Shown here: piece after piece, positions 27,124 to 62,384 of the stretch
Layout: each line of letters begins with the position of its first letter
How positions within the stretch are numbered: position 1 is the first letter of the stretch
From: an uncultured Planctomycetales bacterium
GTDB lineage: Bacteria; Omnitrophota; Gorgyraeia; Zapsychrales; JAHFFX01
Direction: 5' to 3'
Assembly (NCBI GenBank): GCA_964612665.1
Contig: CAZTCI010000004.1
Span: forward strand, 78,376 to 142,375
Length of the DNA: 64,000 nt
Program-made: the position numbers and the translations under genes
Notes under the pieces: generated by a model
What the model saw: the letters and a program-made list of their open reading frames with translations, nothing else
What the model was told of the DNA's origin: nothing
The model's database searches: none

Positions 27124-27152
27124 GAAATTGTTTATTGGCCATTCGACGAATA

Positions 27153-28896: not shown

Positions 28897-28964
28897 ATTC
28901 GAAAATATTATTTAAGAATCGGTTCGAATTTTGAAAATTAGTTCAATCTATATTGATCGTAATA

Positions 28965-29501: not shown

Positions 29502-29910
29502 AAGAATTTTCATAAATCGAAAAACGATTTTTCAAAAAAAATCCGGTTCTATTTTATTGGAGGCTTTGCTGGCGACCGTTATTTTGGGTTCGTGCGTGAC
29601 GGTCATTATGCAGTCGCTCATTTCCGGCAGTCGAGCCATTCAGTACAGCAGCTTTTTTCTCACAACTGATTTGGCCTTGCAAAATAGAATGGAATATTTG
29701 TTTAAAAAAGGATTAGATGACGACACCCAAAACCAAATCACTCAAAGCGACGACACGAGTAAGTATGAGTTTGAAGAGCATAAAGTTTATCCCGACGATC
29801 CACAAGATTTCTTGAAAGAAGTGGCGCTCAAGGTCGATTGGCAAGATAATGGGCAAGAAAGAAACAATACGGTCACAAGCTGGATTTATGATGTTCCGCA
29901 ATCGAAATAA
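29494..29910 (+). CDS. Minor pseudopilin (GspI-like)
   Basis: MNKRIFINRKTIFQKKSGSILLEALLATVILGS is a prepilin-type N-terminus. The in-frame ATG at 29494 overlaps the stop of the previous gene (ATGAATAA). The upstream part of the track ORF (from 29311) is an artefactual extension. Confidence 0.6.
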   Translation: MNKRIFINRKTIFQKKSGSILLEALLATVILGSCVTVIMQSLISGSRAIQYSSFFLTTDLALQNRMEYLFKKGLDDDTQNQITQSDDTSKYEFEEHKVYPDDPQDFLKEVALKVDWQDNGQERNNTVTSWIYDVPQSK

Positions 29911-31784: not shown

Positions 31785-31791
31785 ATCCATT

Positions 31792-33255: not shown

Positions 33256-33256
33256 T

Positions 33257-33790
33257 ATGTTAACAAACTTAAGCCCGCGCGACAAAAACAGCCTGATTAT
33301 TTGTATCTTGGCGATTTTGGTGGGTGTCTATTATTTTGGTGTGATTCAGCCGCTTAAAGGCAGCCAAACAGCTTTAGAAGAACAGCGCAGCGCTGCACAG
33401 AAGAAATTCAAGAAAGAAAAAAGTTTAATTCAGGAAAGCCAGCAAATGGCCGTTGCCTATGAATCCTATTTGCCGCTGTTTAATCAGGATTTTTCCAATC
33501 CCGAGCAGATGTCAGCCATCGTCGCTGAAATTGAATCTGTAGCCGCGCAGATTAATCTGCGTTTTTCCGAAATCAAACCCGGGAAAGTCCGAAAGGAAGA
33601 TTCTTATAACATTTTTTCGGTTAGTCTTTCCACAGAAGGCCGGTTCGAGGATATGGCCCACTTTCTGTATTTGTTGCAAAGCAAACCACATTTGTTTCAG
33701 GTAGAAGATCTGCATATGGAAAAAAATGGCCAGGCATTCTTGAAAACCGAACTCGTCGTCAGCCGTTTATTCATTCCGCAGTCTAATTAA
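33257..33790 (+). CDS. GspM / PilO-like protein
   Basis: 177 aa. N-terminal TM (LIICILAILVGVYYFGV), then coiled coil. Called by gene order. Confidence 0.5.
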   Translation: MLTNLSPRDKNSLIICILAILVGVYYFGVIQPLKGSQTALEEQRSAAQKKFKKEKSLIQESQQMAVAYESYLPLFNQDFSNPEQMSAIVAEIESVAAQINLRFSEIKPGKVRKEDSYNIFSVSLSTEGRFEDMAHFLYLLQSKPHLFQVEDLHMEKNGQAFLKTELVVSRLFIPQSN

Positions 33791-33903
33791 TCATCTTGAA
33801 ACGTCGGAATTGCCAAAAATTTTTAATTAATGGTTTTCTACTAAAATTTGTGTGATAAAATGACCACAATACATTCATCTTTGAAGAAATTTAGGGGCTT
33901 TTC

Positions 33904-34446
33904 ATGAATCCAAAAAAATTAGGAGGAATGTCCCGTAATTTACTATTGGCTCCCTGGAGTGGTGTTACCTTTGATTCGCAGTTTTTGTCGCGGTTGAATC
34001 TGTTGTTGAAGTTGTCGGTTTTTTTGTTGAGTGTGTATGTTATTTATAGTTATAGTGTAGCTATCAAAAGGACGCCGAAAATTCCTGCCACCGAAACTAT
34101 TAATCAAACAGTTTTGACTCTGAGATTAGAAGAAAAATCCTACGATTTTTACGCACAGACCATTGGCAAGCGGGATATTTTTAATCTAGCGCCGCCGGCG
34201 GCAAGCGTTCCGGCGGTTCAGGTCAGTGTCGAACAAAAACAGCAGGCTGTTGAATTTGTCCGCAATTTAAAGCTCGTCGGCATTGTGCTCGATAAAACCC
34301 CCTTGGCTATTATTGAAAATCTTCAGACACAAGACACTATATTTTTGAATAAAGGCGGCAAACTTGGCGATGCGGTTTTAGAAGATATTCAGGAAGATAA
34401 AATTGTCATGAAATATAAAGGACAACGCATTGAAATTGTTCCATAA
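33904..34446 (+). CDS. GspC / PilP-like protein
   Basis: 180 aa. TM, then a beta-rich C-domain (...LKLVGIVLDKTPLAIIEN...). It lies immediately upstream of the secretin. Confidence 0.4.
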   Translation: MNPKKLGGMSRNLLLAPWSGVTFDSQFLSRLNLLLKLSVFLLSVYVIYSYSVAIKRTPKIPATETINQTVLTLRLEEKSYDFYAQTIGKRDIFNLAPPAASVPAVQVSVEQKQQAVEFVRNLKLVGIVLDKTPLAIIENLQTQDTIFLNKGGKLGDAVLEDIQEDKIVMKYKGQRIEIVP

Positions 34447-36517
34447 ATTCAGAATGAAGCACCTTCTTGAAGCCTTAGCAGGTTTCAATGAGGAACAGTG
34501 GGATAAGGGCCAATCATTTTTATTAACCTGGGGGATGATTTTTATTTGCCTGACGGTTACGGTTGTCCATGTATTGAAGGTCTATGCAATCGATGACACA
34601 ACGCAGGCTGTAAAAAAAGCCTTAGATATCTACGCCAAAAAGCAAGTCACAAAACCCGTCAAGGTAGCCCAAGCACCCACTGATCAGCAATCCAACGCTA
34701 CTAATAGTGCTAATACGAGCAATCAACCTCAGGCGAACCAGCCAGTACCAGAACCTCCTTTACCCGCACCGACGCCAACGCCTACACCGACGCCCGCTGC
34801 TGAACCAGTTTATAATCAACCTCCCGAAAATAATATGCCGTCTCCTTCCCCCGGCGGGGAAGGTTATAACAATTTTAATAATTATAATTCGTCTGCTTCT
34901 AACCCCGCGCCTTCAGGTCCGGGAAAAGCGAACATTATTTTTAAGGATGAAAATAAAACCAAATCTTCAGAAGAAGAAACTCCGCCGGTCGATAATACTA
35001 AGCCGATCATGATCGATCTTTTAGAATTAAAAAACATGGACATCATTGATGTCCTTAAGTTGATTTCTCAAAAAAGCGGTTTGAATATTGTCGCCGGCCG
35101 TGATGTTTCTGGGCGTGTGAACCTTTATTTAAAAGATGTGGAGGTCCGGGACGCTTTGAGAATTATCGCCGAAAGTAATAATTTAGGTTTTGCCGAGGAG
35201 GATGGCGTTATCAAGGTCATGACCCAAAGGGATTTTCAGATGAAGTATGGTGTTAATTTTGGGGAGAAACTGCAGACCAAAACGATTCAGCTGGTTAATG
35301 TTGACACGTTAGAAATCGCGACGGTGCTTAACCAGATGAAAAGTATCATGGGCCGGGTCATTCCTGAAAAGAATTCGAATTCCATTGTCATCATCGATCT
35401 GCCGGACAAAATCAAAGAGCTAACCGGATTCTTAAAGCGCGTTGATACCCCGCGCAAGACCGAGGTTTTCACACTCAATCATGCAACCGCCGAAGAAGTT
35501 GCCAAAAAGTTGCCTGATGTTTTAACTAAAAATGTCGGCAAAGTGGAAGTCGATGTCCGGTTGAATAAACTTTTGATTACTGATCTCGCTGAGAAAATGC
35601 CTTTGATTGAAAAATTCATTGAAGCGGTCGATGGTAAACAAAAGGAAGTTTTGATTGAAGCCAAGATTGTTCAAGTTGTTTTAAGTGATGAATATAAATT
35701 AGGTGTGGACTGGGAAGCGATTGTGCGCAACTATCATTCGCTAGATTTAAAAAGCAGCTTTAGTGTTTTGGATCCGTCGGACAAAAGAGGTAAAGTCAGC
35801 ATCGGTACTTTAGACAGCGACGCTTACACGGCGCTGGTCGAAGCGTTAAAGACAATTGGTACAACCAATCTCCTGTCCAGTCCGCGGATCACCGTTGTCA
35901 ATAATAAGGAAGCCAAGATTTTGGTTGGTTCAACGGAGCCCTATATTACAAGTACAACGATCACGCCTTCTGCCGGTCCGACGACAACGTCCGAAAGTGT
36001 TAACTTCATTGAAGTCGGGGTTAAACTTTACGTGACCCCGACTATTCATAACGATGGATTTATTACCATGCAGATTAAGCCGGAAGTGAGTTCCGTAACG
36101 AGTACCGTTAAGACAAGTAATAACAATACCATTCCCGTTGTTGAAACTTCTCAGGCTGAAACTACGGTCATCATTCGTGACGGGAGCACAATTGTTATCG
36201 GCGGTTTGATAAAAGATGAAAAGATTAAATCGACGAGAAAAATTCCCGGGCTTGGCGATATTCCACTTTTGGGTTCTGTTTTCCGCAGTCAAGATGATAC
36301 AAAAACAAAAACTGAGCTTGTTATTTTTCTAACGCCACGGCTTATCACCGGTGATCATAATGAAGATAATCCGTCGATGGAAGATGAAAGCAGCGACAAA
36401 GTGAGCATGACTGACAAGCATGATGCTTTGAGTGATTTTGTATACACAAAAGATTATCTCGATGCCGGTGAACGCCAGGCCCGTCCTGAAGATTTTACCC
36501 CGTCCCGTTCCAATTAA
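34430..36517 (+). CDS. gspD: Secretin (GspD/PilQ family) with a Pro/Thr-rich linker
   Basis: The C-terminal ...VIIRDGSTIVIGGLIKDEKIKSTRKIPGLGDIPLLGSVFRSQDDTKTKTELVIFLTPRLI is the secretin signature. N-domains (...DVLKLISQKSGLNIVAG...) are present. A low-complexity PTPTPTPTP linker follows the N-terminus. The true start may lie downstream of 34430. Confidence 0.88.
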   Translation: MKLFHKFRMKHLLEALAGFNEEQWDKGQSFLLTWGMIFICLTVTVVHVLKVYAIDDTTQAVKKALDIYAKKQVTKPVKVAQAPTDQQSNATNSANTSNQPQANQPVPEPPLPAPTPTPTPTPAAEPVYNQPPENNMPSPSPGGEGYNNFNNYNSSASNPAPSGPGKANIIFKDENKTKSSEEETPPVDNTKPIMIDLLELKNMDIIDVLKLISQKSGLNIVAGRDVSGRVNLYLKDVEVRDALRIIAESNNLGFAEEDGVIKVMTQRDFQMKYGVNFGEKLQTKTIQLVNVDTLEIATVLNQMKSIMGRVIPEKNSNSIVIIDLPDKIKELTGFLKRVDTPRKTEVFTLNHATAEEVAKKLPDVLTKNVGKVEVDVRLNKLLITDLAEKMPLIEKFIEAVDGKQKEVLIEAKIVQVVLSDEYKLGVDWEAIVRNYHSLDLKSSFSVLDPSDKRGKVSIGTLDSDAYTALVEALKTIGTTNLLSSPRITVVNNKEAKILVGSTEPYITSTTITPSAGPTTTSESVNFIEVGVKLYVTPTIHNDGFITMQIKPEVSSVTSTVKTSNNNTIPVVETSQAETTVIIRDGSTIVIGGLIKDEKIKSTRKIPGLGDIPLLGSVFRSQDDTKTKTELVIFLTPRLITGDHNEDNPSMEDESSDKVSMTDKHDALSDFVYTKDYLDAGERQARPEDFTPSRSN

Positions 36518-36521
36518 TAAA

Positions 36522-37535
36522 TCAATCGTCGTCTTTATCCGGAAGATTATAGATAGACCAAATCAGCCGGTGGTCTGATACGGCTTTTTTGGCGCGCGTA
36601 TCATCATTGCCAAAAAGCGTTTCATCGAACCGGTTCACGCCGGATTTCCCGGAATATTCATGAAGATACTGACGCTCAAACCAAAAATTGTCGTAGAGAC
36701 TTGTGTCGGTGACCGTTGTTTTCTCCGGCGGGCGGATAAGGTAGGTCATAGAGGGAAGTGATCTTAAAGATTTGAATCCAATATCATCAGGCGGGAGATT
36801 GAAGTCGCCTAATAAAATGACATCATGTTCGTGAGGATTTTGTTTAAGAATATTTTGGTAAACTTCGGTGAGTGCCGCGGCCTCTGGACGGCGGTTTGCC
36901 TTGTTTTTTCCATACAACAGATGAATCGTCAAAAGAGTAAAATCAAAATTACCGGCGCGAAACGTCGCGTAAAAAGGTTCGCGGATAAATTGGTGAAGCG
37001 TATCCGGGTATAATTCGCCTTTTATGGCCACGCTGACCTTGTTCTGCCGGTATAAAAAAGCGTAGAGTTCAGGACTGTGCGCCAGATGATGGCTGATTTC
37101 GTAGTTATAGTTGTATCCCATCTTTTTTAGAATATCGACGGTGCGTTGGAGCACTTCAGGGTCGCGTAGTTCCTGAATCGCGATGATGTCGTAATTTTTC
37201 AGGACTTTCGCAATGTCGTCCAGCTCATCATCGCTGCGGCTTTTGTTAGAAAAGATCCGGATATTAAACGAGGCGATGGAAAGTTGACGTGCGATGTCTG
37301 GTGGAAGCTGCGGTTGAGAAACTTTTTGAGGTAATGTTGGTGACGTGGAAGGTGCTGGTGTTTCAATAGAGGGTGTTGAAGGAGTTGTTTGAGGCGATTG
37401 AGAAAGTTGTGATTGTGCAACATGATAAATGAGAAAGGCAATACCGCCCAGCAAAATAACGAGCAGAAGGAAGTTAAGAAAACCGTTGCCTCGGTTTTGT
37501 AGTCGCCGTCGGGGAATTCTGTATTTTGGGGTCAT
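36522..37535 (-). CDS. Secreted or membrane-anchored endonuclease/exonuclease/phosphatase (EEP) family protein
   Basis: 337 aa. N-terminal TM (FLNFLLLVILLGGIAFLIY), a Ser/Thr/Pro linker, then ...SIASFNIRIFSNK...DIIAIQELRD... and ...LLGDFNL...SDHRLIW, which are EEP catalytic motifs. Confidence 0.8.
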   Translation of the reverse strand: MTPKYRIPRRRLQNRGNGFLNFLLLVILLGGIAFLIYHVAQSQLSQSPQTTPSTPSIETPAPSTSPTLPQKVSQPQLPPDIARQLSIASFNIRIFSNKSRSDDELDDIAKVLKNYDIIAIQELRDPEVLQRTVDILKKMGYNYNYEISHHLAHSPELYAFLYRQNKVSVAIKGELYPDTLHQFIREPFYATFRAGNFDFTLLTIHLLYGKNKANRRPEAAALTEVYQNILKQNPHEHDVILLGDFNLPPDDIGFKSLRSLPSMTYLIRPPEKTTVTDTSLYDNFWFERQYLHEYSGKSGVNRFDETLFGNDDTRAKKAVSDHRLIWSIYNLPDKDDD

Positions 37536-39021: not shown

Positions 39022-39062
39022 AATGAGTGAGAGAGGGCAGATTTTTTAAGAAGACAACGCGA

Positions 39063-39644
39063 ATGGACAAGCCGGACGACGAATTAGTTCAAGAATATCT
39101 AAAGGGCACTGACGAGGCATTAGCCATGATTTTTCATCGTTATAAAAATCCGCTTTTTAATTATGCGCTCCGGATCCTAGGCAACCGCGCCGACGCCGAA
39201 GATACCTTAAGCGATGTCTTTCTTGTCCTTTTTGAGAAAAAATACCAGCCCGCAGCCAACGCTAAATTCTCTACCTGGCTTTATACCGTGACCCGCAACA
39301 GTTGCATCGACAAAATACGCAAAAGAAAAAAGTTTGTCGCGATGTGGTTCACCAACGAAGAAACCCGCGAACTCAAACCGCTTGAAATGCCCGCTTGTGA
39401 AAATCCGCCGGGCGAAACGCTTCAAAAAGAAGAAACCGCACGTTATATTCGCCGGGCACTCAACAAACTTCCCTTCTTACAAAAAGAAGCCTTGGTCTTA
39501 CGTGAATATCAGCAGTTGAGTTACGAAGAAATTGCCCAAGTGCTCAACTGTTCCCTTGAAAAAGTAAAGATTTTGATTTTCCGCGCCCGCAAAGCGCTTA
39601 AAGAAAATATTCCATCCTTTATTTTAAAGGAGGAAACTCCATGA
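39063..39644 (+). CDS. ECF-family RNA polymerase sigma-70 factor
   Basis: About 193 aa from the ATG at 39063 (the track start at 39027 is GTG). Region 2 is ...FNYALRILGNRADAEDTLSDVFLV.... Region 4 is ...LREYQQLSYEEIAQVLNCSLEKVKILIFRARKAL. Confidence 0.8.
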   Translation: MDKPDDELVQEYLKGTDEALAMIFHRYKNPLFNYALRILGNRADAEDTLSDVFLVLFEKKYQPAANAKFSTWLYTVTRNSCIDKIRKRKKFVAMWFTNEETRELKPLEMPACENPPGETLQKEETARYIRRALNKLPFLQKEALVLREYQQLSYEEIAQVLNCSLEKVKILIFRARKALKENIPSFILKEETP

Positions 39645-41986
39645 CCGATCATATCAAAATGCAGGAATTAATTTCCGCCTGGCTCGACGGAGAAGTGACG
39701 CCTTCTGAACGCGCCGAGGTTGAACAACATATCAAAGAATGTCCGGCTTGCGCCAAACTCGCCCAAGAATGGCGCACGCTTTCGTCTTCTCTTAAAAAAT
39801 GGCCTGATGAAGTTCTCTCTCCGGATCTTGAACAGAAAATTCAACAACGTTTGCGACATCCAAAATCTAAGGAGGAGAGTATGGAAACTCAAAAATTAGT
39901 CGGAATTGCTTTGACGATATGTATTGTGATTGCGTGCCTTCTTCATCGAAACGACACGTATACTCAATTATCTCTCGGAAGTCGTATTCGAACCGTCAGT
40001 TCTGAAGAATTAAGAAGACAAGAATTAAAAAGATATAGTCAGGCAAAGCAGGAACCATATTATATACAATTGCACTCGACGGATGACCGAAACAAAAAGA
40101 CGGAACCCACGCAGTTGGCGCAATTACAGGATTCGAAAGATTATTTAAGCGAGCGTGGGTATATTTTGGTGCCAGAGAAAGAAAAGAAAGCTGGAAATGA
40201 GCCGCAAGCAGTCATGAATGCTGGATTTAAAGCATTTCCAGACCGAGAAACATTAGCAAAAAGTGCTGTTAGTTCAAAGTTTCGAAATGATCTCAGTGAT
40301 CAGTTTTCACCGGGTAATACCGGGGCTGTTAAAACAGCCAGGCTGGCGCAAGGAAAAGTCGATATGTATGAGCCCTATTACTTGCAAAGTAATTATAAAG
40401 TTTCGAGGACGAAAGAATTGAAGCAAAAGGGGAACGAAAATTCTCCTGCTTCATCGATAGCTGAGTCTGAGGCCGTGTTATTTGCGCAAACACCGCCGAT
40501 GGATTTGAAAGATAATTATGGAGTTTATGGATATGAGCAGCAATTGACCGCTAATACAGAACAGTATGATCAGTTAAATGAGAATCAATTCAAACTAGCG
40601 CTTGATGAACCGCTGTCGACTTTTTCGATCGATGTAGATACGGCGTCTTATGCGAACATCCGTCGATTTATTAACAACGGTCAGCTCCCGCCGAAAGATG
40701 CGGTCCGCATTGAAGAGATGATCAATTATTTTAAATATGATTATCCACAGCCAAACCAGGAAGTTCCATTTACAGTGACGACAGAAGCGGCCGTGTGTCC
40801 GTGGAATAAGAAACATATTCTGGCGCTGATTGGATTGCAAGGCAAAAACATTGACACTAAACAACTGCCGCCGAGCAATCTGGTTTTCTTGATTGATGTT
40901 TCTGGTTCGATGGATGAGCCAAACAAGTTACCGCTGTTAAAGTCATCCTTCAAATTGTTAGTGAAACAACTTCGCCCAGAAGATCACGTGGCGATCGTTG
41001 TTTACGCCGGCAATGCGGGTTTGGTTTTGGAGACAACGCCCGGAAACGAACAAGCAAGAATCAATAACGCGATTGATAATCTTCAAGCGGGTGGTTCAAC
41101 GGCAGGCGGAGCTGGCATCCAGCTGGCTTATAAAATTGCAAAGGATAATTTTATCGCTTCCGGAAATAATCGAGTCATCTTAGCTACCGACGGAGATTTT
41201 AACGTCGGCGTTTCGAGTGACGATGAATTGGTTAAACTGATTGAAGAGAAACGCGATCAAGGGATTTTTTTAACTGTCTTAGGATTTGGTACCGGAAATT
41301 ATAAAGACAGCAAGATGGAAAAGCTCGCCGACAAAGGTAACGGCAATTATGCTTACATCGATAACATTCTGGAAGGCGAAAAAGTTTTTGTGCAGGAGTT
41401 GAGTTCAACACTTTTGACAATCGCCAAGGATGTTAAAATTCAAATTGAATTTAATCCCGGCCAAGTCAAAGCTTACCGGCTGATTGGTTATGAAAACCGT
41501 ATGCTGGCTAAAGAAGATTTTAACGATGACCGTAAAGACGCTGGTGAAATCGGCGCCGGGCACAGCGTGACCGCGCTTTATGAAATTGTCCCAGCGGATT
41601 CCGATGAAAACTTTAACAGCGTCGATCCTCTGAAGTATCAAAAGTCAGCGGAAACCTCGCCAAAACCGACGATCACGCCAAGCGATGATTGGATGACAGT
41701 GAAACTCCGTTATAAAGAACCGCAGGAGCAAACGAGCAAATTGCTGACTGAAGTTGTTTCAAAAAAGAAAGTTCAGTCAGATATCCGGTCAAATAATTTG
41801 AACTTTGCCTCTGCCGTTGCAGAGTTTGGGCTGCTCTTGCGTGATTCGTCCTATAAAGGAGAAGCCAATTATTCCGCCGTTCTGGAACGCGGCCAACATT
41901 CTGTCGGAGCTGATCCGCAGGGATACCGGGCAGAGTTTTTAAAGTTGGTCAAGATGGCGCAGATGTTAGGGGAGGGCGGTCAATAA
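39641..41986 (+). CDS. Anti-sigma factor (zf-HC2) fused to a periplasmic von Willebrand factor A domain and a DUF3520-like C-terminal region
   Basis: 781 aa. Its start overlaps the sigma stop (ATGA). The N-terminal ...LISAWLDGEVTPSERAEVEQHIKECPACAKL... is a zinc-finger anti-sigma motif. A TM helix follows (LVGIALTICIVIACLL). ...NLVFLIDVSGSMDEPNKLPLLKSS... is a vWA MIDAS motif. The C-terminus is YfbK-like. Confidence 0.75.
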   Translation: MTDHIKMQELISAWLDGEVTPSERAEVEQHIKECPACAKLAQEWRTLSSSLKKWPDEVLSPDLEQKIQQRLRHPKSKEESMETQKLVGIALTICIVIACLLHRNDTYTQLSLGSRIRTVSSEELRRQELKRYSQAKQEPYYIQLHSTDDRNKKTEPTQLAQLQDSKDYLSERGYILVPEKEKKAGNEPQAVMNAGFKAFPDRETLAKSAVSSKFRNDLSDQFSPGNTGAVKTARLAQGKVDMYEPYYLQSNYKVSRTKELKQKGNENSPASSIAESEAVLFAQTPPMDLKDNYGVYGYEQQLTANTEQYDQLNENQFKLALDEPLSTFSIDVDTASYANIRRFINNGQLPPKDAVRIEEMINYFKYDYPQPNQEVPFTVTTEAAVCPWNKKHILALIGLQGKNIDTKQLPPSNLVFLIDVSGSMDEPNKLPLLKSSFKLLVKQLRPEDHVAIVVYAGNAGLVLETTPGNEQARINNAIDNLQAGGSTAGGAGIQLAYKIAKDNFIASGNNRVILATDGDFNVGVSSDDELVKLIEEKRDQGIFLTVLGFGTGNYKDSKMEKLADKGNGNYAYIDNILEGEKVFVQELSSTLLTIAKDVKIQIEFNPGQVKAYRLIGYENRMLAKEDFNDDRKDAGEIGAGHSVTALYEIVPADSDENFNSVDPLKYQKSAETSPKPTITPSDDWMTVKLRYKEPQEQTSKLLTEVVSKKKVQSDIRSNNLNFASAVAEFGLLLRDSSYKGEANYSAVLERGQHSVGADPQGYRAEFLKLVKMAQMLGEGGQ
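41575..41596. repeat. 22-nt exact repeat, copy 2 (inside the anti-sigma/vWA CDS, encoding ...AGHSVTAL...)
   Basis: Identical to 37565..37586. Confidence 0.8.
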
Positions 41987-42303: not shown

Positions 42304-43824
42304 ATGATTACCAATCCGTATCTCCTTATTGGACTACCATGTCTTTCAGCTTTTTTGTTTTATTTAGGATTTCCTAATTTCATTAATATTTTTGGGTTTG
42401 AGTGGCTGGCTTGGTTTTGTTTGATCCCACTCTTTTTTAGTCTCGACGGGCAACCTTTGAAAGAGCGTCTTAAAATCGGCGCTCTTTTTTCTTTTATCGC
42501 GTTTTGTCTTTTGGTCAATTGGCTTTTACCCTACAACATCTTTGGTTATTTTGCTTTTGTCATCGCTCTTTCGATTGGGCCGATCTTTTTTGCGGTTTTT
42601 TTCCCTTGTCCTTGGCCGAGTAAACTAATCAACCTCATTTATGTCCCCGCCCTCTGGGTTGCAACCGAATTTTTACGCACAATTCTTCTTGGTGGATTTT
42701 CCTGGTCTTTTGGCCACTCACAGGCTTTTCAAACCAATATCATTCAATTGGCCGATATCACGGGTGCTTATGGTCTGTCATTTATTTTGGTCTGGATCAA
42801 TTATTGTCTTTTCATGATTCTTAAAGAGCCGGATGACCGTTATGTATATGGGGCTGGCTGCCTTTTGGTCATTATCGTGTTATGGCTTTACGCTTATTTT
42901 TCGCCAGCGGTTAATTTGTCTTCAAAGTCTGAACCGATTTTTTATGAAATCGCGACCATTCAGCCCAACATTTCTCCGACGGAAAAATGGGACCCGCAAA
43001 GGATTAACGAGGTCATTAATAAGCACATTCATTTGACCCAAAAATCGCTTAAAAACCGTGAGCCTGATATTGTGGTTTGGCCGGAGACTGCGATTCCGGA
43101 TGATTTTATTCGTAATCCCCGGATGCGTGACAAAGTCACTCAGATTGCGACCCAAGTCAAATCGCATCTTTTAATCGGCGCTGCTTTATTTGAAAATGAA
43201 CGGGATTACAATAGCGTTGTCTTTCTCAACGGCCGCGGTGCGGTTCTGGATATTTACCGCAAAAAATATTTAATTCCATTCAGTGAATATCTGCCGCTCA
43301 AACAATATTTTTCTTTCTTGCGGGAAGTTTTTAATTTTAATATTTACGATTTTTATCCCGGACAAAGTGTTGGCGTTTTTACGATTCATAAGAAATGGGA
43401 CAAGGATTATCAGGAACAAAAATTTGGCGTGGCTTTATGTTCTGAGGGCGGCTATCCGGTTTTGTTCCGGCAGCTCGTCGCGCAGGGAAGTGGTTTTATT
43501 ATTTTAATGTTAAACGATGCGTGGTTTCCGAGTAAATCCGCCATGATTCTGCACGCGCAAAATGAAATCATGCGTTCGGTTGAAAATCATGTGCCTATCG
43601 TGCGTGCCGCTAATTCCGGATGGTCGTGTTCTATTGATGAATTTGGGCGGGTTAAAGGTAACGCGTTACAGCGTCCGGAACTTATGACTTCAGGATTTTA
43701 TCTTTCGCATGTCGCGCCGAACCAGCAAAAAACTTTTTACACAAAATTTGGTGATATATTTTCTGTGTTTTGTTTGCTTTTTGTTATAATGACCGCAGCG
43801 CCGAAAATAAAAAATTTTTTATAA
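42304..43824 (+). CDS. lnt: Apolipoprotein N-acyltransferase
   Basis: 506 aa. Multi-TM N-domain plus a CN-hydrolase domain (...DIVVWPETAIP..., ...VALCSEGGYP...). Confidence 0.8.
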   Translation: MITNPYLLIGLPCLSAFLFYLGFPNFINIFGFEWLAWFCLIPLFFSLDGQPLKERLKIGALFSFIAFCLLVNWLLPYNIFGYFAFVIALSIGPIFFAVFFPCPWPSKLINLIYVPALWVATEFLRTILLGGFSWSFGHSQAFQTNIIQLADITGAYGLSFILVWINYCLFMILKEPDDRYVYGAGCLLVIIVLWLYAYFSPAVNLSSKSEPIFYEIATIQPNISPTEKWDPQRINEVINKHIHLTQKSLKNREPDIVVWPETAIPDDFIRNPRMRDKVTQIATQVKSHLLIGAALFENERDYNSVVFLNGRGAVLDIYRKKYLIPFSEYLPLKQYFSFLREVFNFNIYDFYPGQSVGVFTIHKKWDKDYQEQKFGVALCSEGGYPVLFRQLVAQGSGFIILMLNDAWFPSKSAMILHAQNEIMRSVENHVPIVRAANSGWSCSIDEFGRVKGNALQRPELMTSGFYLSHVAPNQQKTFYTKFGDIFSVFCLLFVIMTAAPKIKNFL

Positions 43825-43841
43825 AGAAAGATTTGAAGATC

Positions 43842-44933
43842 ATGCGTTGGACGGCCAGAGTCAGCTTATATTTTTCCGTCATAATTTCTTTTATTTTTTT
43901 AATCCTTCCTAACGCCTTTGGCGCTGGTGCCGTTGCCCAGCGCAAACAGGCCATCCAGCAGCGGCAAAAAGCTGTCGAAGAACAAATCATCAAACAGCGC
44001 GTCGCCGCCGAGCAGCAAGCTTTCGCCGAACGTCAAGCCGCCATCCAGAAACGTGTCATGGAAGAGCGCGCGATGGCTGAAGCGATCGCGCGGAAAAAAA
44101 TGATGATTCAACAACAGCAGCAAGCGATTGCTCAAGCGATTGCGCAAAAACGCGCGCAAGAACAAATGGCCTTTGAGGCCGCGAAAGCACTGAAACAGCG
44201 TCAAGCCGCCGCGCAAGGTCAGGCGGTTGCCGAAGTGGTTCAAGAGAAACGCTCCGCCGAACAAAAGGCTTTCCAAACGGCAGCAGCCCGCAAGGCTCAG
44301 TATGTGGCTCAACAACAAGCTCAACTCCAAGCAAACGCCGTCGGGCAGGCTGTTGCACAAAAACGAGCGCAGGAACAAATGTTAGCGGCGCGCGTACTTG
44401 GTACGCGCAATCAAATGGCGCAGGATAAACTTGCCGAGGAACAAGCGATTGTCGCCCAGCAAGGTGTTTTAGTCTCCGGAGCTCGTCACAAAGTTGGGCA
44501 AGAAATCGGTCAATTGGCGATGGCGGGTCAGGCTCAACAAGCTCAACAGCAGGCGGCCCAGCATTCCGGCGAGGTGGCGCAGGTCGCTAATATTGAAGAT
44601 GTTTGGCAAACGATGGAAACTTCCAGCCGCGCGTGGCCTCTGATGATCGACGCAGATGCCAAGGCGCTTACGGTCGCTTACTTCATAAAACGTTATCAGC
44701 AGCAAGGCATCACGATGCATAAAGACCCCATGGTTTACGTCGGGATGATCGACGGCATGTTCCAGCAAAGTCCGGATATGATCAATGAACCTTTTGAAAA
44801 AGTTTTACAAATGGCGGCGATTATCGAATACGATTTCGAAAACGGCGCCGATAAAGATATGATGGCCAAAAAAATTCTAGGCGACAAAGCCTTCGCAGCG
44901 AATAAACAGCGGCTGGCGGCGGAGAAAAAATAG
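43842..44933 (+). CDS. Secreted Gln/Ala-rich tandem-repeat protein
   Basis: About 363 aa from the ATG at 43842. Signal/TM, then degenerate repeats (AIAQKRAQEQM x2, AEQ[QK]AF x3), then a non-repetitive C-terminal domain. Confidence 0.45.
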   Translation: MRWTARVSLYFSVIISFIFLILPNAFGAGAVAQRKQAIQQRQKAVEEQIIKQRVAAEQQAFAERQAAIQKRVMEERAMAEAIARKKMMIQQQQQAIAQAIAQKRAQEQMAFEAAKALKQRQAAAQGQAVAEVVQEKRSAEQKAFQTAAARKAQYVAQQQAQLQANAVGQAVAQKRAQEQMLAARVLGTRNQMAQDKLAEEQAIVAQQGVLVSGARHKVGQEIGQLAMAGQAQQAQQQAAQHSGEVAQVANIEDVWQTMETSSRAWPLMIDADAKALTVAYFIKRYQQQGITMHKDPMVYVGMIDGMFQQSPDMINEPFEKVLQMAAIIEYDFENGADKDMMAKKILGDKAFAANKQRLAAEKK

Positions 44934-56430: not shown

Positions 56431-56512
56431 GCGCGGGTGGCGGAATTGGTATACGCGCACGTTTGAGGGGCGTGTGGGGCAACCCGTGAGAGTTCAATTC
56501 TCTCCCCGCGCA
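56431..56512 (+). tRNA. tRNA-Leu (anticodon GAG), type II with long variable arm
   Basis: Manual fold. Acceptor GCGCGGG/CCCGCGC plus discriminator A. D-arm GCGG-AATTGGTAT-ACGC, nearly identical to the E. coli tRNA-Leu D-arm. Anticodon stem CACGT/GCGTG with loop TTGAGGG. Variable arm GGGGCAACCC. T-arm GAGAG-TTCAATT-CTCTC. CCA is not encoded. Confidence 0.8.
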
Positions 56513-56581: not shown

Positions 56582-57280
56582 ATGACTGCCAACAAACCTC
56601 GAACCAGACTCATTTCTACGTTTAAACAAAGCGCTGTTTTTTATTTAAAGAATATTTTTTCTTTTATCATATTAGCCGCTTGGAGCGTTGTTCCGTTTTC
56701 CATTTTGCTTGTTATCATTTTTTATTTGGGACTGACTCAAAGGCAAGTAACTTTCTTATCGAATCTTTTATCTTCTTGGATTTATTGCCTGCTTTTGTTT
56801 TGGTTGCACTTTACCCTTATTAAATGGTGTGAAGTTAAATGGCGCGACGAAAAACCTCAAGTTTTAACCGCATATGCGCAAGGATTGACGGAGATTTTGA
56901 CTTTTTCATGGCGGTTTTCGATTCCTTTTATTTTGTTTTATTTGTTCGTTGTTGTCCTTCCTTTTTTGGGAGGGCCAGTTTTATATAATATTCCTTTGGC
57001 AGCGGCTTTGTTATATTATTACCTTTCTCCCTCGAGATTGAATCCATCTAAAAGAGAATTTGCAGCGTTTGCGGCGATTTTGATTTTCTTCATGAGCGGT
57101 ATTGCTTCCTTGGTTGACCCGTTTTCAGAGTGGGCTTACTCTGATATGTTATTTTTGGGTGATGTTTTGCCTGCCGTATTCCACGTTATGGTGTTTAATC
57201 TAGGTATGGTTATTTTAGGTTTCTTTCCGGCTGTTGTATTTTTTATATTAGCGAACAATCTAAAAAGACAGGAAGCGTAA
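56582..57280 (+). CDS. Hypothetical integral membrane protein (about 6 TM)
   Basis: 232 aa, highly hydrophobic, no recognisable motif. Confidence 0.4.
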   Translation: MTANKPRTRLISTFKQSAVFYLKNIFSFIILAAWSVVPFSILLVIIFYLGLTQRQVTFLSNLLSSWIYCLLLFWLHFTLIKWCEVKWRDEKPQVLTAYAQGLTEILTFSWRFSIPFILFYLFVVVLPFLGGPVLYNIPLAAALLYYYLSPSRLNPSKREFAAFAAILIFFMSGIASLVDPFSEWAYSDMLFLGDVLPAVFHVMVFNLGMVILGFFPAVVFFILANNLKRQEA

Positions 57281-57987
57281 TGCCTAGATTATCAGTTAGC
57301 GCCAGTATTCTTTGCGCTGATTTTACCCGATTGGGAGAAGAGATTAGGAAGACAGAAGAAGCCGGTGCAGACATGATTCACGTCGATGTAATGGACGGGC
57401 ATTTTGTTCCCAACATTACAATCGGTCCGGTGATTGTAAATGCTATCCGGCCGTTAACCCGTTTGCCGATTGAGGCGCATTTGATGATTGAGAATCCGGG
57501 TAACTATATTGAAGCGTTTGCTGAAGCGGGCACCGATATTATTTCTGTTCATGCAGAATGTTATGGAACCCGGCGGGCTTCATCCAGATTGCCTGGGCAG
57601 TTTCCTAAAGAAATTGATGAAATTGATCCGGCGTTGGTGCGTAAGGATATTTCAAAGATTAAAAGCCTCGGCCGGAGAATTTTTTTGACGATAAATCCTG
57701 GAACGCCGATGTGTTTGCAACCGGTTTTAAAAGATATCGACGGCATTTTAATTATGTCGGTTAATCCGGGCTTTGCCAAACAAGCCTTTATGCCGGAAGT
57801 ATTGGATAAGATAAGAGAATTACGGAAGATTTATTCAGGTGATATTTCCATCGACGGCGGCATCAACGATAAAACAGCACCCCAAGCGGTTAAAGCGGGC
57901 GCTAATATTTTGGTAACGGCCAGTTACTTTTACGGCGCTAAAGACCGCGCACAGGTGGTTAAGATTTTAAAAGCCCCGGCCGTCTAA
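57280..57987 (+). CDS. rpe: Ribulose-phosphate 3-epimerase
   Basis: 235 aa. ...SASILCADFTRLGEEIRKTEEAGADMIHVDVMDGHFVPNITIGP... is the canonical Rpe N-terminus with metal-binding His/Asp. Confidence 0.88.
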   Translation: MPRLSVSASILCADFTRLGEEIRKTEEAGADMIHVDVMDGHFVPNITIGPVIVNAIRPLTRLPIEAHLMIENPGNYIEAFAEAGTDIISVHAECYGTRRASSRLPGQFPKEIDEIDPALVRKDISKIKSLGRRIFLTINPGTPMCLQPVLKDIDGILIMSVNPGFAKQAFMPEVLDKIRELRKIYSGDISIDGGINDKTAPQAVKAGANILVTASYFYGAKDRAQVVKILKAPAV

Positions 57988-58073
57988 AGGTCTTTTAGGA
58001 TTCCTGCGTTGCCAAAGTTGTTTAAGGCGTGGTATATTTAAAGCGTAGAGACAAATACTCTTATCATTTTTCC

Positions 58074-58289
58074 ATGAAAAGAAAATTTCGAACTCAATAT
58101 CTTTCATCTCATCGGGCACAAACGGCCATTGAATACATGCTGCTTTTATTGATTGTGACTTTGGTCGTCTTGTCGGGGATTAAAAATTTATTGCCTAGAA
58201 CCCAGAAAGCCTCTGAAATTTTCTATAACAATGCGACTATTGCGATTTATGGTAAACCGCCAGAGATTTTACAGGCGGTAGGTCCGTAA
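58074..58289 (+). CDS. Flp/Fap-type (class III signal) pilin-like small protein
   Basis: About 71 aa from the ATG at 58074. The basic leader ...SSHRA is followed by QTAIEYMLLLLIVTLVVLSGI, which resembles the Flp-pilin G/A-xTAIEY-hydrophobic motif. Confidence 0.4.
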   Translation: MKRKFRTQYLSSHRAQTAIEYMLLLLIVTLVVLSGIKNLLPRTQKASEIFYNNATIAIYGKPPEILQAVGP

Positions 58290-58310
58290 AGTTTTTGTAG
58301 TAGACTTATA

Positions 58311-58347
58311 AAAACCCCCTGGATCCTATTTGGTTCCAGGGGGTTTT
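58311..58347. terminator. Bidirectional terminator between the convergent Flp-like gene and the GGDEF operon
   Basis: AAAAACCCCCTGGA-tcctatttggt-TCCAGGGGGTTTTAT, with A/T runs on both sides. Confidence 0.65.
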
Positions 58348-58352
58348 ATATC

Positions 58353-59285
58353 TTAATTTGTTTTGCGCTGATCACGGACGAAATTGCTTTTTTCTGAACT
58401 TTTAGCATATTTCTTAAGCTCAGCGCCAATTTCACTGATCTGTGCCACATGCGTAATTTTGTGGGTCGCGCTGCTAACAACACCAATGGAAATAGAAAGA
58501 AGGCTGGTTCTAATTTCATGGCCTTGACGGTCTTTGCCTAAAATGTAACCGTTTTTGCGGTCTTCCTCGTTATAAAATCCTGGAGCAATTTTATCAAAAT
58601 TTTGAATGATCGCTTGAGAGACGTTATCAACCTTATCATCGTCGGTAATAAATACAAAATCATCGCCGCCTATGTGTCCTAAGAAACCATCGGGTCCGCC
58701 GTGTGCACGAACAGCCTCAATTAAAATACGTCCCGTCGCCCGAATCACTTCATCACCTTTCTCAAAGCCATACTTATCATTGTAGATTTTAAATTTATCC
58801 AAGTCGGCGTATCCGACGGCAAAGACTTGTTTTCTTTCGATCCGTTGTAGTAATTCTTCCATAATGGAAGTGTTGCCCGGAAGACGCGTTAAGGGATTCG
58901 CATCGAGACTTCGAATCGTCCGCCGCAGAATCATACGAATACGCGCTAAAAGTTCTTCGGGTTCAAAGGGTTTGACCAGATAATCGTCGGCGCCGGCATC
59001 AATTCCGCCGACCATGTCTTTAACTTCACCTTTTCCGGTCAGCATGATGACGGGGATGTGTTGCAGCAAAATATCTTTTTTCAGCGTCTGGCAAAATTCA
59101 CGGCCGTTCATGACCGGCATCATGTAATCGGTGATGATAAGGTCAGGATTTTTTTGGTTGACCAGCTGTAATCCTTCCTTGCCGTTATTGGCCTGATAGA
59201 CCTCGTAATGTTCAGACAGTGTAAGCTGAAGAACATCCAAAATATCCGGATCGTCGTCGACTGTTAGAATTCTTTCTCGGTGCAT
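58353..59285 (-). CDS. Response regulator with a GGDEF-family output domain (non-canonical GGDDF motif)
   Basis: 310 aa. The REC domain is ...ILTVDDDPDILDVL...PDLIITDYMMPVMNG.... The GGDEF fold is ...YADLDKFKIYNDKYGFEKGDEVI...GHIGGDDFVFI.... The signature reads GGDDF, and no RxxD I-site lies upstream of it. Confidence 0.75.
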   Translation of the reverse strand: MHRERILTVDDDPDILDVLQLTLSEHYEVYQANNGKEGLQLVNQKNPDLIITDYMMPVMNGREFCQTLKKDILLQHIPVIMLTGKGEVKDMVGGIDAGADDYLVKPFEPEELLARIRMILRRTIRSLDANPLTRLPGNTSIMEELLQRIERKQVFAVGYADLDKFKIYNDKYGFEKGDEVIRATGRILIEAVRAHGGPDGFLGHIGGDDFVFITDDDKVDNVSQAIIQNFDKIAPGFYNEEDRKNGYILGKDRQGHEIRTSLLSISIGVVSSATHKITHVAQISEIGAELKKYAKSSEKSNFVRDQRKTN

Positions 59286-59328
59286 AAATTAATCCTCGCT
59301 GTCTAATGAATCATTTTTAAACAAAGGC

Positions 59329-60846
59329 TTAAGCTTTTGGAGCCACAGGGATCGTAAAATAAAAAGTGGTTCCTTGATTTACTTTGCTGGTTACCCAAAT
59401 TTTTCCACGGTGAGCTTCAACGATATTTTTGACCAACGAAAGTCCAAGGCCGGTGCCTTTAACATTTTGATTGATTTCATTTTCAACGCGGTAGAATTCA
59501 TCAAAAAGTTTTGGCAGATCTTCTTCTTTAATGCCGATTCCTGTATCGCTCACCGAAAATAACACCATCTCATCTTTATCAGGGCTGGCCGTGATTGTAA
59601 TAGTGCCGTTTTGCGGTGTAAATTTGATAGCGTTTCCGACGAGATTTATTAAGACCCGTTCGATTTGCTGGGCATCGACCAGAATTTCGGGCGTTTGGCC
59701 AGCGACTTCGGTTTTTAGTTGGATCATTTTGTCGCGCATCTGCGGTGTTAAAAGATCGCGCACATTGTCGATAAGTCCCACCACATTCTGTTTGCTGAAT
59801 TTCATTTCGACCCGTCCTGCTTCAATCCGGGCGATATCCAAAAGGTCATTAATCATTTTAACTAGGTTGTCCGAATGTTTGTTGATTTTTTCTAGACGTT
59901 CTTTGACCGGTAATGGGATTTCGCCCATTTTTCCGCTTATCAAAATAGAAGCGTAACCTTTAATCGAAGTTAGAGGCGTGCGCAGCTCATGCGAGACAGC
60001 GGAAATGAAGTCTGATTTCATTTTGCTTGTTCTTTGGACTTTTTCGAGTGCGGCAGCCAGTTCTTTTGTGCGGTCTTGTACTTTGGACTCAAGTTCTTGA
60101 CGGGAACGGTAAACTTGTTCAAAAAGTTTGGCGTTTTCCATCGCCTGGCTGATTTGGTCTGCCAAAATGGATAAAAGTTCTTCGTCACCTTGAGTGATGG
60201 TTGAACCGTCCGCGTGATTCCCGACGAAGACAAAACCAATAACACCCTCTTGGGCTAAAATGGGCGCGACGACAAAATGTTCGCTATTAAAAATTTGAAG
60301 AATTTTTTGTTTGCGCGGCACCGGCGCAGCCGCCGATGAAAACGTTGCGCCTTCTTTAAGGAAGCCCGCGAAAGTTGTGTCTTTATCAATTTGGGAAAGG
60401 ACAAAAAGGACTTCTTCTTTGGTGAAACCGGATTCAATCCGGCAATGGCTTTTCTTATAAGCATCGAACATGATAATGAGAATTTTTTCAAAACCCAACT
60501 CAGCGACGAGTGTTTGGCTTAAGCGTTTGAATATTTCTTCCGGGTCGAGGGTGGTGCTGATTAACCGTGAGGTTTTTTGGAGGGCATTAAGACCGTTTAA
60601 ACGTTTGTCGAGTTCTTCTTGCGCGCGGTTAAGTTCAAGATCGGTTTTGACAATGAGTTTGGCCTGTTCATCAAGTTCATCAAATGATTTCTTAATTTGG
60701 CTAAATGATAGTTCAAGTTGTTTGATGTTCTCCATTTTCCAGATTAAAAGAAACGAAAGAAAGCCAATAGCAAAGAAAAAGAATAAAACAGAGATGTTAA
60801 GGTAGATAGGGTCAAGCTGTTTAACTAATTGAGCAAACGCGTCCAT
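59329..60846 (-). CDS. Sensor histidine kinase with GAF domain
   Basis: 505 aa. N-terminal TM, a GAF-like region, HisKA (...SHELRTPLTSIKGY...) and HATPase_c (...DTGIGI...GTGLGLSLVK...). Confidence 0.85.
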   Translation of the reverse strand: MDAFAQLVKQLDPIYLNISVLFFFFAIGFLSFLLIWKMENIKQLELSFSQIKKSFDELDEQAKLIVKTDLELNRAQEELDKRLNGLNALQKTSRLISTTLDPEEIFKRLSQTLVAELGFEKILIIMFDAYKKSHCRIESGFTKEEVLFVLSQIDKDTTFAGFLKEGATFSSAAAPVPRKQKILQIFNSEHFVVAPILAQEGVIGFVFVGNHADGSTITQGDEELLSILADQISQAMENAKLFEQVYRSRQELESKVQDRTKELAAALEKVQRTSKMKSDFISAVSHELRTPLTSIKGYASILISGKMGEIPLPVKERLEKINKHSDNLVKMINDLLDIARIEAGRVEMKFSKQNVVGLIDNVRDLLTPQMRDKMIQLKTEVAGQTPEILVDAQQIERVLINLVGNAIKFTPQNGTITITASPDKDEMVLFSVSDTGIGIKEEDLPKLFDEFYRVENEINQNVKGTGLGLSLVKNIVEAHRGKIWVTSKVNQGTTFYFTIPVAPKA

Positions 60847-60850
60847 ATCC

Positions 60851-62047
60851 TTATCCTATGGCGAGTAGAGTAATCGTTTCGTTTTGCAACCGGAGGTTAC
60901 GGCTGGATGTTCCCCCGACGGCGGGCAGAGGAGCGATTTCACCATAGGTGTACATGCCGAATAAAGGAACGTTATCTCCCAAGATTTTTTTGATGCCCAA
61001 GATCTCTTTAAAGGCGTCACGGCCCATCAATTTATAACGGGCGAGCGATTCAAAAATCAAAACAAATTTCGGCGTTTTGCCTTTCATTGACTTTTGAATC
61101 GTCAGCGCGGCGTCCATGGCAGCTTGCTTACAAGATTCCTTATTGCCCAGCATTAAATGCACGCGTGAGCCTTGAGGAACTTCACCCTGACATACAATAC
61201 TCCCGTCTTCTAAGATGTCAATAGCATTCCGTAACAAAAATTGTTTTTCCTCCTCGAGATATATGCCTAAAGGATAAAAAACCGTCATGGGATTAAGCCG
61301 TTGCGTGCGCAGGTTAAAAGCTTCCTGTCCGAAAAATTCTTCATAAATGCTGTAGGCATTTTTACCATCGATTGTACGAATGAAAGGGCCATCGCTTTGA
61401 TCAATCATGCGCGGTTTTCCCAAAGGTCGCCATCCGTGCTGACAGGCGATGGCGACCGTAATATGCCCGCCGATCAATAACCCGACGGCACCATAGTTAA
61501 TCGGTTTATTACTATAGTATTGATAAGTCCTTTGAAACCGCAAATAATCACTTGTTCCCGCAGCAACAATAGGGAAAAGAGTGCCCAATGTTTCTTTAAA
61601 ACCATTGATGATAGGGTCGATGTTATTAATCAACCCGTCGGAAAGACAGATAAAAACTTGGCGAGGTTGGGGGCTCATATAATCAGCCAAAGTGCCTTTG
61701 GCTAAAAGACTGCCGTTTTGCCGGAAATCAAGTTTGGTCAAGTTATTTAACCCGCTTGTAGCAAAATGTAATTCGTCGGAGTTAATGGCCAAGATACCTA
61801 TACCGCGCATTTCAATGCCTTGAGACAAAATAAGCCCCGCGGTGCTGCCGCCGATCATGCGGGTGGGATGATCCAGCGTTTCGTTAATGGTCGTTAAAAC
61901 TTCCGGTGAATTATAATGGGGAGTGTGGAAAACAATCGCTAGGTCGACGGATTGTCGAACCGTTTCTTTAGCCTGATGCGCCGCTTCCCAAGCGGCCTTG
62001 GCGGGATTAGGGTTTTGGCTGAAACCGATACCAATGTACGTGGGCAC
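60851..62047 (-). CDS. FIST-domain sensory protein
   Basis: 398 aa. MPTYIGIGFSQNPNPAKAAWEAAHQA... is the typical FIST_N start, and a FIST_C region is present. First gene of the minus-strand operon. Confidence 0.65.
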   Translation of the reverse strand: MPTYIGIGFSQNPNPAKAAWEAAHQAKETVRQSVDLAIVFHTPHYNSPEVLTTINETLDHPTRMIGGSTAGLILSQGIEMRGIGILAINSDELHFATSGLNNLTKLDFRQNGSLLAKGTLADYMSPQPRQVFICLSDGLINNIDPIINGFKETLGTLFPIVAAGTSDYLRFQRTYQYYSNKPINYGAVGLLIGGHITVAIACQHGWRPLGKPRMIDQSDGPFIRTIDGKNAYSIYEEFFGQEAFNLRTQRLNPMTVFYPLGIYLEEEKQFLLRNAIDILEDGSIVCQGEVPQGSRVHLMLGNKESCKQAAMDAALTIQKSMKGKTPKFVLIFESLARYKLMGRDAFKEILGIKKILGDNVPLFGMYTYGEIAPLPAVGGTSSRNLRLQNETITLLAIG

Positions 62048-62309: not shown

Positions 62310-62384
62310 TAGCCCTAGCCGGATTTGAACCGGCGTTTTCTGCCTGAGAAGCAGACGTCCTGGACCAGGCTAGACGATGGGGCC
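62310..62384 (-). tRNA. tRNA-Glu (anticodon CUC)
   Basis: Manual fold of the reverse complement: GGCCCCA-TC-GTC-TAGCCTGGTCCAG-GAC-G-TCTGC-TTCTCAG-GCAGA-AAAC-GCCGG-TTCAAAT-CCGGC-TAGGGCT-A. The D- and T-arms are close to E. coli tRNA-Glu. The acceptor stem has one C6:A67 mismatch and a G1:U72 pair. Confidence 0.65.

Follow-up and report, generated by a model that had tools for sequence, protein, structure and literature searches.

Can a response regulator whose diguanylate cyclase signature reads GGDDF still synthesize cyclic di-GMP (c-di-GMP), or is it a broken enzyme? The question is raised by an operon of three minus-strand genes in a 64,000-nucleotide (nt) stretch of DNA from an uncultured Omnitrophota lineage (the window; all coordinates below are window positions). 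The genes encode a soluble FIST protein, a membrane-anchored histidine kinase and a regulator in which a receiver (REC) domain is followed by a GGDEF domain with the motif GGDDF. The original prediction for this locus had left open whether the output is an inactive or receptor-type domain or an unusual active variant. The latter is favoured by the invariance of the motif and of the metal- and guanine-binding residues among orthologues and throughout a clade, and by a 42%-identical domain from Geobacter that is active; the regulator is probably an active c-di-GMP synthase rather than a broken enzyme. The operon and its regulator are a real, well-conserved signalling locus and a new example of two known kinds, the circuit of FIST protein, kinase and c-di-GMP regulator, and the GGDDF-type GGDEF cyclase.

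The GGDDF motif and the residues around it

The accepted rule for the active-site motif of GGDEF domains is [G/A/S]G[D/E]E[F/Y] (PMC8835794), and the original prediction agrees with the same source in taking the Glu at the fourth position to be normally catalytic. The window motif departs from the rule by an Asp at this position. HIGGDDF is encoded at 58656-58676(-), and in an HMMER alignment GGDDF falls on the GGEEF of PleD, so that translation and alignment both confirm the motif as first read. The domain matches Pfam GGDEF (PF00990) with 54.7 bits (cut-off 23.8; E = 1.3e-14). In the alignment with PleD, D161 corresponds to D327, K166 to K332, N169 to N335, D178 to D344 and, within the motif, D208 to E370 and D209 to E371; the equivalents of the first five are thus retained and only E371 has become Asp. 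For the second half of the domain we take K295 to be the equivalent of PleD K442, S300 to stand in place of R446, and H204 in place of R366. This presumed mapping relies on the anchors SISIG and YxAK and on a numbering of PleD that reproduces the published positions D327, N335, D344, R359, D362, K442 and R446. The metal- and guanine-binding set therefore appears to be intact, and the equivalents of R366, E371 and R446 appear to have been replaced together throughout the clade. Three invariant basic residues, R253, K291 and R307, are new relative to PleD and may compensate for the lost arginines.

Diguanylate cyclases commonly, though not obligatorily, have an RxxD inhibitory site (I-site) five residues before the motif. 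In place of the RAID of PleD, the window domain reads RAHG (193-196) and then has an insertion of four residues; RxxD is missing, as had been noted before. From the lack of the I-site the output is predicted not to be product-inhibited. N169 and D178 form the canonical guanine pair, which makes GTP the predicted substrate and c-di-GMP the predicted product.

The AlphaFold2 model of the regulator has a predicted local distance difference test score (pLDDT) of 88 overall and of 92.6 for the GGDDF domain, which exhibits the canonical GGDEF topology (a0-b1-a1-a2-b2-b3-a3-hairpin-b4-a4-b5) with a slightly longer hairpin. In Foldseek the whole regulator finds WspR, DgcR and PleD as best matches. A Foldseek search with just the domain gave GGDEF domains for each of the 50 best PDB matches (TM-score up to 0.81), and neither a Cas10 nor a class III cyclase is among these 50. 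At the sequence level the best PDB match is 6EIB (2.5e-7), with an alignment that does not extend past the first half of the domain, and this PDB search with the domain returned no solved structure of the GGDDF clade.

These data bear on the suspicion that the motif call is an artefact, with the true GG(D/E)EF lying elsewhere or the domain having another nucleotide-cyclase or a Cas10-palm fold, both of which the original prediction had named as grounds for abandoning it. Cas10 palms do carry GGDD, and one representative of the clade weakly matched Cas10-Cmr2_palm2 (3e-5). However, the domain contains no other G-G-acidic-acidic-aromatic motif and GGDDF is aligned on the PleD GGEEF, which rules out a true motif elsewhere, and the fold evidence given above leads to rejection of a Cas10-type palm. 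The artefact is thus refuted and retains practically no chance of being the explanation.

Like WspR (3BRE), DgcR (6ZXB) and PleD (1W25), the regulator combines REC, a helical linker and a GGDEF fold, and it has in common with them the equivalents of D327, K332, N335, D344, E370 and, by the presumed mapping, K442. Activation by phosphorylation-driven dimerization is presumed for the regulator as for these three proteins. It differs from them in having GGDDF for GG(D/E)EF, His for PleD R366 and Ser for R446, in lacking the RxxD I-site, in its longer hairpin region and in a sequence similarity that is confined to the domain's first half. PleD has two REC domains and the window regulator only one, and the latter is therefore more WspR/DgcR-like than PleD-like. 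Its earlier description as a PleD-like response regulator needs correction on this point.

A GGDDF clade in many phyla

An exhaustive search with amino acids (aa) 126-310 against 1.84 billion cluster representatives yielded 19,941 matches at E<1e-3, 3,092 at <1e-10 and 826 at <1e-30. Nearly all of the best 150 of the 826 representatives match almost the whole domain, with 40-60% identity; about 145 of the best 150 have GGDD[FY], and in 142 a His stands two residues before the motif. As a working definition of the clade we used GH[IV]GGDD[FY], the equivalents of R253, K291, K295 and S300, a C-terminal D-R-R and a full-length match (~183 aa). The window regulator belongs to the clade so defined, with DQR where the C-terminal consensus is DRR. 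Across 100 representatives D161, F165, K166, D170, G177, H204, G206, G207, D208, R253 and K295 are invariant, and N169, D209, F210, Y238, K291, S300 and R307 are conserved to at least 90%. Of 143 clade representatives, 138 lack RxxD. When GTDB species genomes were scanned, more than 600 pattern matches were obtained; among those listed are Omnitrophota, Nitrospirota, Desulfobacterota, Planctomycetota, Actinomycetota, Chloroflexota, Clostridia, Spirochaetales and others. A literature search for earlier descriptions of the GGDDF clade found nothing relevant. GGDDF is the signature of a broad, structurally unsolved and almost unstudied sub-clade of GGDEF domains with a rebuilt active site.

The domain is found in different settings: in 101 aligned clade proteins the fusion partners are REC (59), EAL (16), HAMP (13) and CBS (6). 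The base-specificity position 178 is Asp in 87, Ser in 7 and Asn in 7 of the representatives, and every member with Ser or Asn there in the alignment is a transmembrane (TM)-HAMP protein. The Asn-178 TM-HAMP-GGDDF subgroup consists of P0141, P0177, P0207, P0212, P0214, P0216 and P0218, among which we know of no characterized member. The clade representatives also include the EAL/CBS + GGDDF architecture of Bordetella DdpB-type proteins. DdpB (BB2957), a Streptomyces EAL-GGDDF protein and PA3258 of Pseudomonas aeruginosa have the GGDDF motif in common with the window regulator, from which they differ in domain context; they are candidate members of the clade, and their activity is unreported or negative.

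An active GGDDF domain from Geobacter

The precedent for activity is GSU1937 of Geobacter sulfurreducens, a TM-HAMP protein that combines the Ser typical of Hypr enzymes with a GGDDF motif and that adds to the in vivo levels of cyclic GMP-AMP (cGAMP) (PMC8835794). When its GGDDF domain was fused to the receiver of GacA, both cGAMP and c-di-GMP were formed in Escherichia coli, and mutation of the motif to GADDF abolished the activity (PMC8835794). The authors refer to GSU1937 as the first active GGDDF enzyme, with "many homologues within Deltaproteobacteria" (PMC8835794). Geobacter and Desulfuromonadales genomes carry TM-HAMP GGDDF proteins with Ser or Asn at position 178. The database name of P0428, from Geobacter metallireducens GS-15, is 'nucleotide cyclase, HAMP and GGDEF-related domain-containing', from which it appears that the annotator had noticed the departure from the standard GGDEF.

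A profile search led to P0445, a 436-aa protein of G. sulfurreducens in which two TM segments and HAMP are combined with GGDDF and with a Ser at the specificity site. In this organism the Ser occurs, GacA aside, only in GSU1937 (PMC8835794), and P0445 is therefore identified as GSU1937 by elimination. Over the 183 residues corresponding to aa 126-308 of the regulator, P0445 aligns without gaps at 42% identity (E = 7e-45), and the window domain is thus a full-length homologue of the GGDDF domain shown to be active. Both have GH[IV]GGDDF, R253, K291, K295, S300 and the C-terminal RR signature, and both lack the I-site. They differ in their input, which is TM-HAMP in GSU1937 and REC in the window regulator, and GSU1937 is not linked to a FIST protein or a kinase. 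They also differ at the base-specificity site, where the Ser of GSU1937, associated with cGAMP, is Asp in the window regulator.

This last difference matters for the possibility that the regulator is an active cyclase with a main product other than c-di-GMP, be it cGAMP, cyclic di-AMP, a linear dinucleotide or another nucleotide. Such a product would be a consequence of the way in which the active site is remodelled in the clade, with its clade-specific invariant basic residues R253, K291 and R307 and a His for PleD R366. Furthermore, the base-specificity site varies within the clade, and the only characterized relative makes cGAMP in its host. However, Hypr specificity requires Ser at the position of PleD D344 or GacA S348 (PMC8835794). 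Position 178 is Asp in the window regulator and in 120 of 120 orthologue clusters, all of which keep the guanine pair N169/D178, and a Hypr cGAMP synthase has been rejected for this locus. Also, the same GSU1937 domain produced c-di-GMP in E. coli, and in 16 of the 101 clade representatives the fusion partner is EAL, a domain that acts on c-di-GMP. We consider a different main product to be very improbable.

Conservation of the regulator in Omnitrophota

A homology search with the regulator gave more than 7,800 matches, of which the best 120 orthologue clusters were re-aligned. These are proteins of about 310 aa with 71-80% identity; the named ones are from Candidatus Omnitrophota. The GGDDF motif is unvarying in all 120 clusters, as are H204 and D161, K166, N169, D170, D178, R253, K291, K295, S300 and R307. 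The REC domain is also well preserved: D10 and D11 of the acidic pocket and the phospho-acceptor D53 are found in 120 of 120 clusters, and T83 and K105 in at least 97%. Between three Omnitrophota loci the identities are 69-73% for the regulator, 76-77% for PyrG, 59-63% for Rpe, 54-62% for the kinase and 42-49% for the FIST protein. The regulator is thus conserved about as well as CTP synthase (PyrG), and a GGDDF held near this level is not the result of decay.

Active or dead?

The main alternative to an active cyclase is that GGDDF is catalytically dead and has become a GTP- or protein-binding output, a receptor or adaptor through which phospho-REC controls a partner protein. The motif does violate the accepted rule, and degenerate GGDEF domains such as that of CC3396 are GTP sensors (PMC8835794). 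The equivalents of PleD R366 and R446 appear to have been lost, and the domain departs in its second half from the sequences in Pfam and the PDB. Fusions to EAL or CBS domains, where a regulatory role would fit, are also found in many members of the clade. On the other hand, a pure binding domain has no need of the metal-binding acidic residues D161, D208 and D209, of the P-loop Lys or of K295, all of which are kept invariant in different phyla. The GGDDF domain of GSU1937 is active and is inactivated by a motif mutation (PMC8835794). In addition, there is no I-site for the binding of c-di-GMP, and the regulator has no further output domain. We consider a dead output domain unlikely.

Several findings nevertheless weigh against an active c-di-GMP synthase. 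PA3258 (GGDDF-EAL) of P. aeruginosa showed no cyclase phenotype (PMC8835794), and no activity has been reported for Bordetella DdpB (GGDDF/ESL). GSU1937 is the sole GGDDF enzyme shown to be active; activity of the REC-GGDDF form and of the form with Asp-178 is what we infer from it. Moreover, of four artificial fusions of GSU1937 just one was active, with an activity below that of GacA (PMC8835794), and P0445 was equated with GSU1937 by elimination rather than through an accession number. The PF00990 match extends only over profile positions 5-116 of 161, and phosphate and active-site contacts of the canonical enzymes (PleD R366 and R446) appear to be replaced. Finally, an Rfam search of the region and of the whole window yielded two tRNAs only and no c-di-GMP riboswitch, and no PilZ gene was seen among the window proteins.

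One could go a step further and regard GH[IV]GGDDF as a separate, ancient enzyme subfamily with a rebuilt centre and no feedback site, which could differ from canonical diguanylate cyclases in its chemistry or its product. We consider this quite improbable. If it were true, D, S or N at position 178 would set the nucleotide specificity, and the FIST-controlled version in Omnitrophota would be a phylum-core regulator conserved like CTP synthase.

The FIST protein, the kinase and the proposed pathway

The FIST protein matches Pfam FIST (4.7e-34) and FIST_C (1.3e-24) and is devoid of a hydrophobic segment; a PDB sequence search with it gave no matches. It matches the NCBIfam NosP model (NF041558) over the full length with 47.4 bits (E = 1.4e-12), compared to an equivalog cut-off of 450, and can therefore not be assigned to NosP. 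It is a distant homologue over its full length, and by analogy we regard it as a putative NosP-type accessory sensor of the kinase. NosP proteins (FIST_N/FIST_C) bind heme and nitric oxide (NO) and control kinases encoded in the same cistron, the regulators of which have outputs related to c-di-GMP. Such systems are known from Legionella pneumophila (lpg0279-0278-0277, NosP–NahK–NarR, where the output is GGDEF-EAL) and from Burkholderia pseudomallei (NosRPK). The earlier statement that FIST proteins are largely uncharacterized does not hold in view of these documented systems.

In the window, as in NosP–NahK–NarR and NosRPK, a stand-alone FIST_N/FIST_C gene is grouped with genes for a histidine kinase and a REC regulator with a c-di-GMP-related output; the co-cistronic arrangement with the kinase is kept in other loci. 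In the NosP systems the FIST protein governs the autophosphorylation of the kinase. The window operon differs from them in that the kinase has a TM anchor and a GAF domain, that the output of the regulator is a lone GGDDF domain rather than GGDEF-EAL or a degenerate HD-GYP, and that the host is an uncultured Omnitrophota lineage.

Near its N-terminus the kinase has a single hydrophobic segment (aa ~17-37, predicted TM), which is followed by a coiled region and by the domains GAF (100-237; Pfam E-value ~1e-7), HisKA (276-344; 1.2e-18) and HATPase_c (391-502; 3.5e-33). The H-box reads SHELRTP, its His being H286. The Pfam matches and the TM segment bear out the original assignment as a membrane GAF-HisKA-HATPase kinase.

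From these components we consider a pathway likely that leads from FIST and GAF inputs via the kinase to a phosphorylated REC dimer and to c-di-GMP formed without product inhibition, each biochemical step of which we infer. By analogy with NosP–NahK/NosK, the soluble FIST protein with a putative small ligand would modulate the autophosphorylation of the co-translated kinase at H286, to the control of which the GAF domain of the kinase would also contribute. The kinase would phosphorylate D53 of the regulator, as suggested by the intact REC quintet and the operon linkage. Phospho-REC would then dimerize via its alpha4-beta5-alpha5 face, and the short linker would bring together two GGDDF domains, as in WspR and DgcR, which would condense two GTP to c-di-GMP. 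In this reaction the Asp at motif position 4 would be a lineage-wide stand-in for the catalytic-base Glu in a remodelled but functional active site.

Operon boundaries and neighbouring genes

The coordinates of the three genes, which had been predicted to form a signalling module, were found to agree exactly (Table 1), and the genes are tightly packed, with gaps of 4 nt between FIST and kinase and of 43 nt between kinase and regulator. The ATG start of the kinase lies 4 nt past the FIST stop codon, and each gene is preceded by a ribosome-binding site (Shine-Dalgarno).

Table 1. Features of the FIST–kinase–REC-GGDDF locus in window coordinates.
Feature	Position	Strand	Characteristics or evidence
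FIST_N + FIST_C soluble protein, 398 aa, GTG start	60851..62047	-	proposed accessory sensor of the kinase
Membrane-anchored histidine kinase, 505 aa	59329..60846	-	TM, coiled region, GAF, HisKA, HATPase_c
REC-GGDDF response regulator, 310 aa	58353..59285	-	Pfam, PleD alignment, AlphaFold2 model
REC domain, aa 6-117	58935..59270	-	Response_reg 3e-30
GGDDF-type GGDEF domain, aa 126-308	58362..58910	-	exhaustive search, conservation, domain model
GGDDF active-site motif, aa 206-210, invariant H204 ahead	58656..58670	-	translation, orthologue invariance
Bidirectional intrinsic-terminator hairpin	58311..58347	.	13-bp G+C-rich stem, A-run and T-run flanks; between regulator and convergent small open reading frame (ORF)
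Convergent small ORF, 71 aa from ATG at 58074	58074..58289	+	QTAIEY + hydrophobic class-III/Flp-like N-terminus
tRNA-Glu(CUC)	62310..62384	-	262 nt upstream of the FIST gene, same strand; bounds the operon 5' region

The 3' end of the operon is formed by the strong hairpin, which was spotted by eye and is backed by folding (-28.1 and -27.6 kcal/mol; z = -4.5 and -5.7). A consensus scan for promoters and terminators gave counts not above those of shuffled sequence; it overlooked this hairpin because the hairpin loop is longer than 8 nt. A promoter-like site is present at 62508-62481, near the tRNA-Glu(CUC), and a tRNA-Leu(GAG) at 56431-56512 (+), downstream of pyrG.

Other Omnitrophota contigs keep the order FIST, GAF kinase, REC-GGDDF, convergent small QTAxEY protein, rpe, pyrG, purF, carB, and the triad of FIST, kinase and REC-GGDDF is found in most Omnitrophota GTDB loci with enough flanking sequence. 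In two Omnitrophota loci (L036 and L042) the kinase was detected and FIST was not. Two Planctomycetia loci and one unclassified bacterium have the triad as well; at the REC-GGDDF loci of Actinomycetota, Chloroflexota and Clostridia no triad was found within 3 kb. In two Actinomycetota loci rpe lies directly upstream of REC-GGDDF on the same strand (L060 1946-3534; L076 1973-3552), whereas in Omnitrophota it is convergent and downstream (window 57280-59285); the rpe/REC-GGDDF neighbourhood thus occurs in two phyla.

The small ORF convergent with the operon had been called an orphan Flp-like pilin. The ORF is real and conserved, its start is most likely at 58074, and a promoter-like site lies ahead of it (58009-58038). 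It contains RAQTAIEYMLLLLIV, the processing motif sought being G/A-xxxxEY followed by a hydrophobic helix. The pilin assignment is sub-threshold, with 22.9 bits against a cut-off of 23.7 for the Class_IIIsignal profile. Homologues are found in the closer Omnitrophota relatives (L001, L003, L047 and L049), the one in L001 being a weak Flp_Fap match. No Tad/Flp machinery genes are present in the 64-kb window. The control of surface behaviour that had been read from this ORF is a conjecture.

Other genes in the window

A cluster at 25320-36517 (+) resembles type II secretion systems (T2SS) and type IV pili. It contains genes for a T2SSE ATPase with MshEN N-domain, T2SSF, a T2SSG pseudopilin, N_methyl minor pilins, T2SSK, PilM/N, PilO, T2SSC and a secretin. 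The N-terminus of the T2SSE ATPase, KLGQLLIKSNVITQEQLEIALREQ, resembles what we take to be the 24-aa c-di-GMP-binding MshEN motif, with R replaced by K and G by N. This ATPase is a possible effector for the output of the operon.

Almost all genes of the window (1-64000) are on the plus strand. The exceptions are the operon with the tRNA-Glu, an Exo_endo_phos gene (36522-37535) and three short ORFs (73-88 aa) that carry no Pfam assignment. A nitrogen-assimilation block at 6813-22241 (+) holds genes for a GAF-GAF-ANTAR regulator, an ammonium transporter, PII, a type III glutamine synthetase, a GATase, NAD synthase and the large and small subunits of glutamate synthase. At 39027-41986 (+) the gene for an extracytoplasmic function (ECF)-type sigma factor is followed by one for a zf-HC2 / vWF_A / VWA / YfbK_C protein, the two being likely an anti-sigma pair. 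Five ORFs of 194-387 aa on the plus strand have no Pfam match at 1e-5 (22241-22825, 23480-24187, 24218-25213, 29849-30643 and 43770-44933), three of them directly upstream of the T2SS-like cluster.

Significance

Annotation and c-di-GMP censuses usually class domains that deviate from GG(D/E)EF as degenerate or inactive. GGDDF is, however, fixed in hundreds of protein clusters from many phyla and is the sole output of the operon described here. To call GGDDF proteins dead would therefore mean to miss synthases of c-di-GMP or of related cyclic dinucleotides. The surprises are modest: a broad, little-studied GGDDF clade, and a FIST-controlled version of it in Omnitrophota with housekeeping-level conservation. 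The compact, soluble REC-GGDDF protein is a better subject than the membrane protein GSU1937 for the study of catalysis with an Asp base and a rebuilt phosphate site. The operon belongs to the best-conserved non-housekeeping genes of an uncultured phylum, and with it the circuit of FIST protein, kinase and c-di-GMP regulator extends beyond Proteobacteria.

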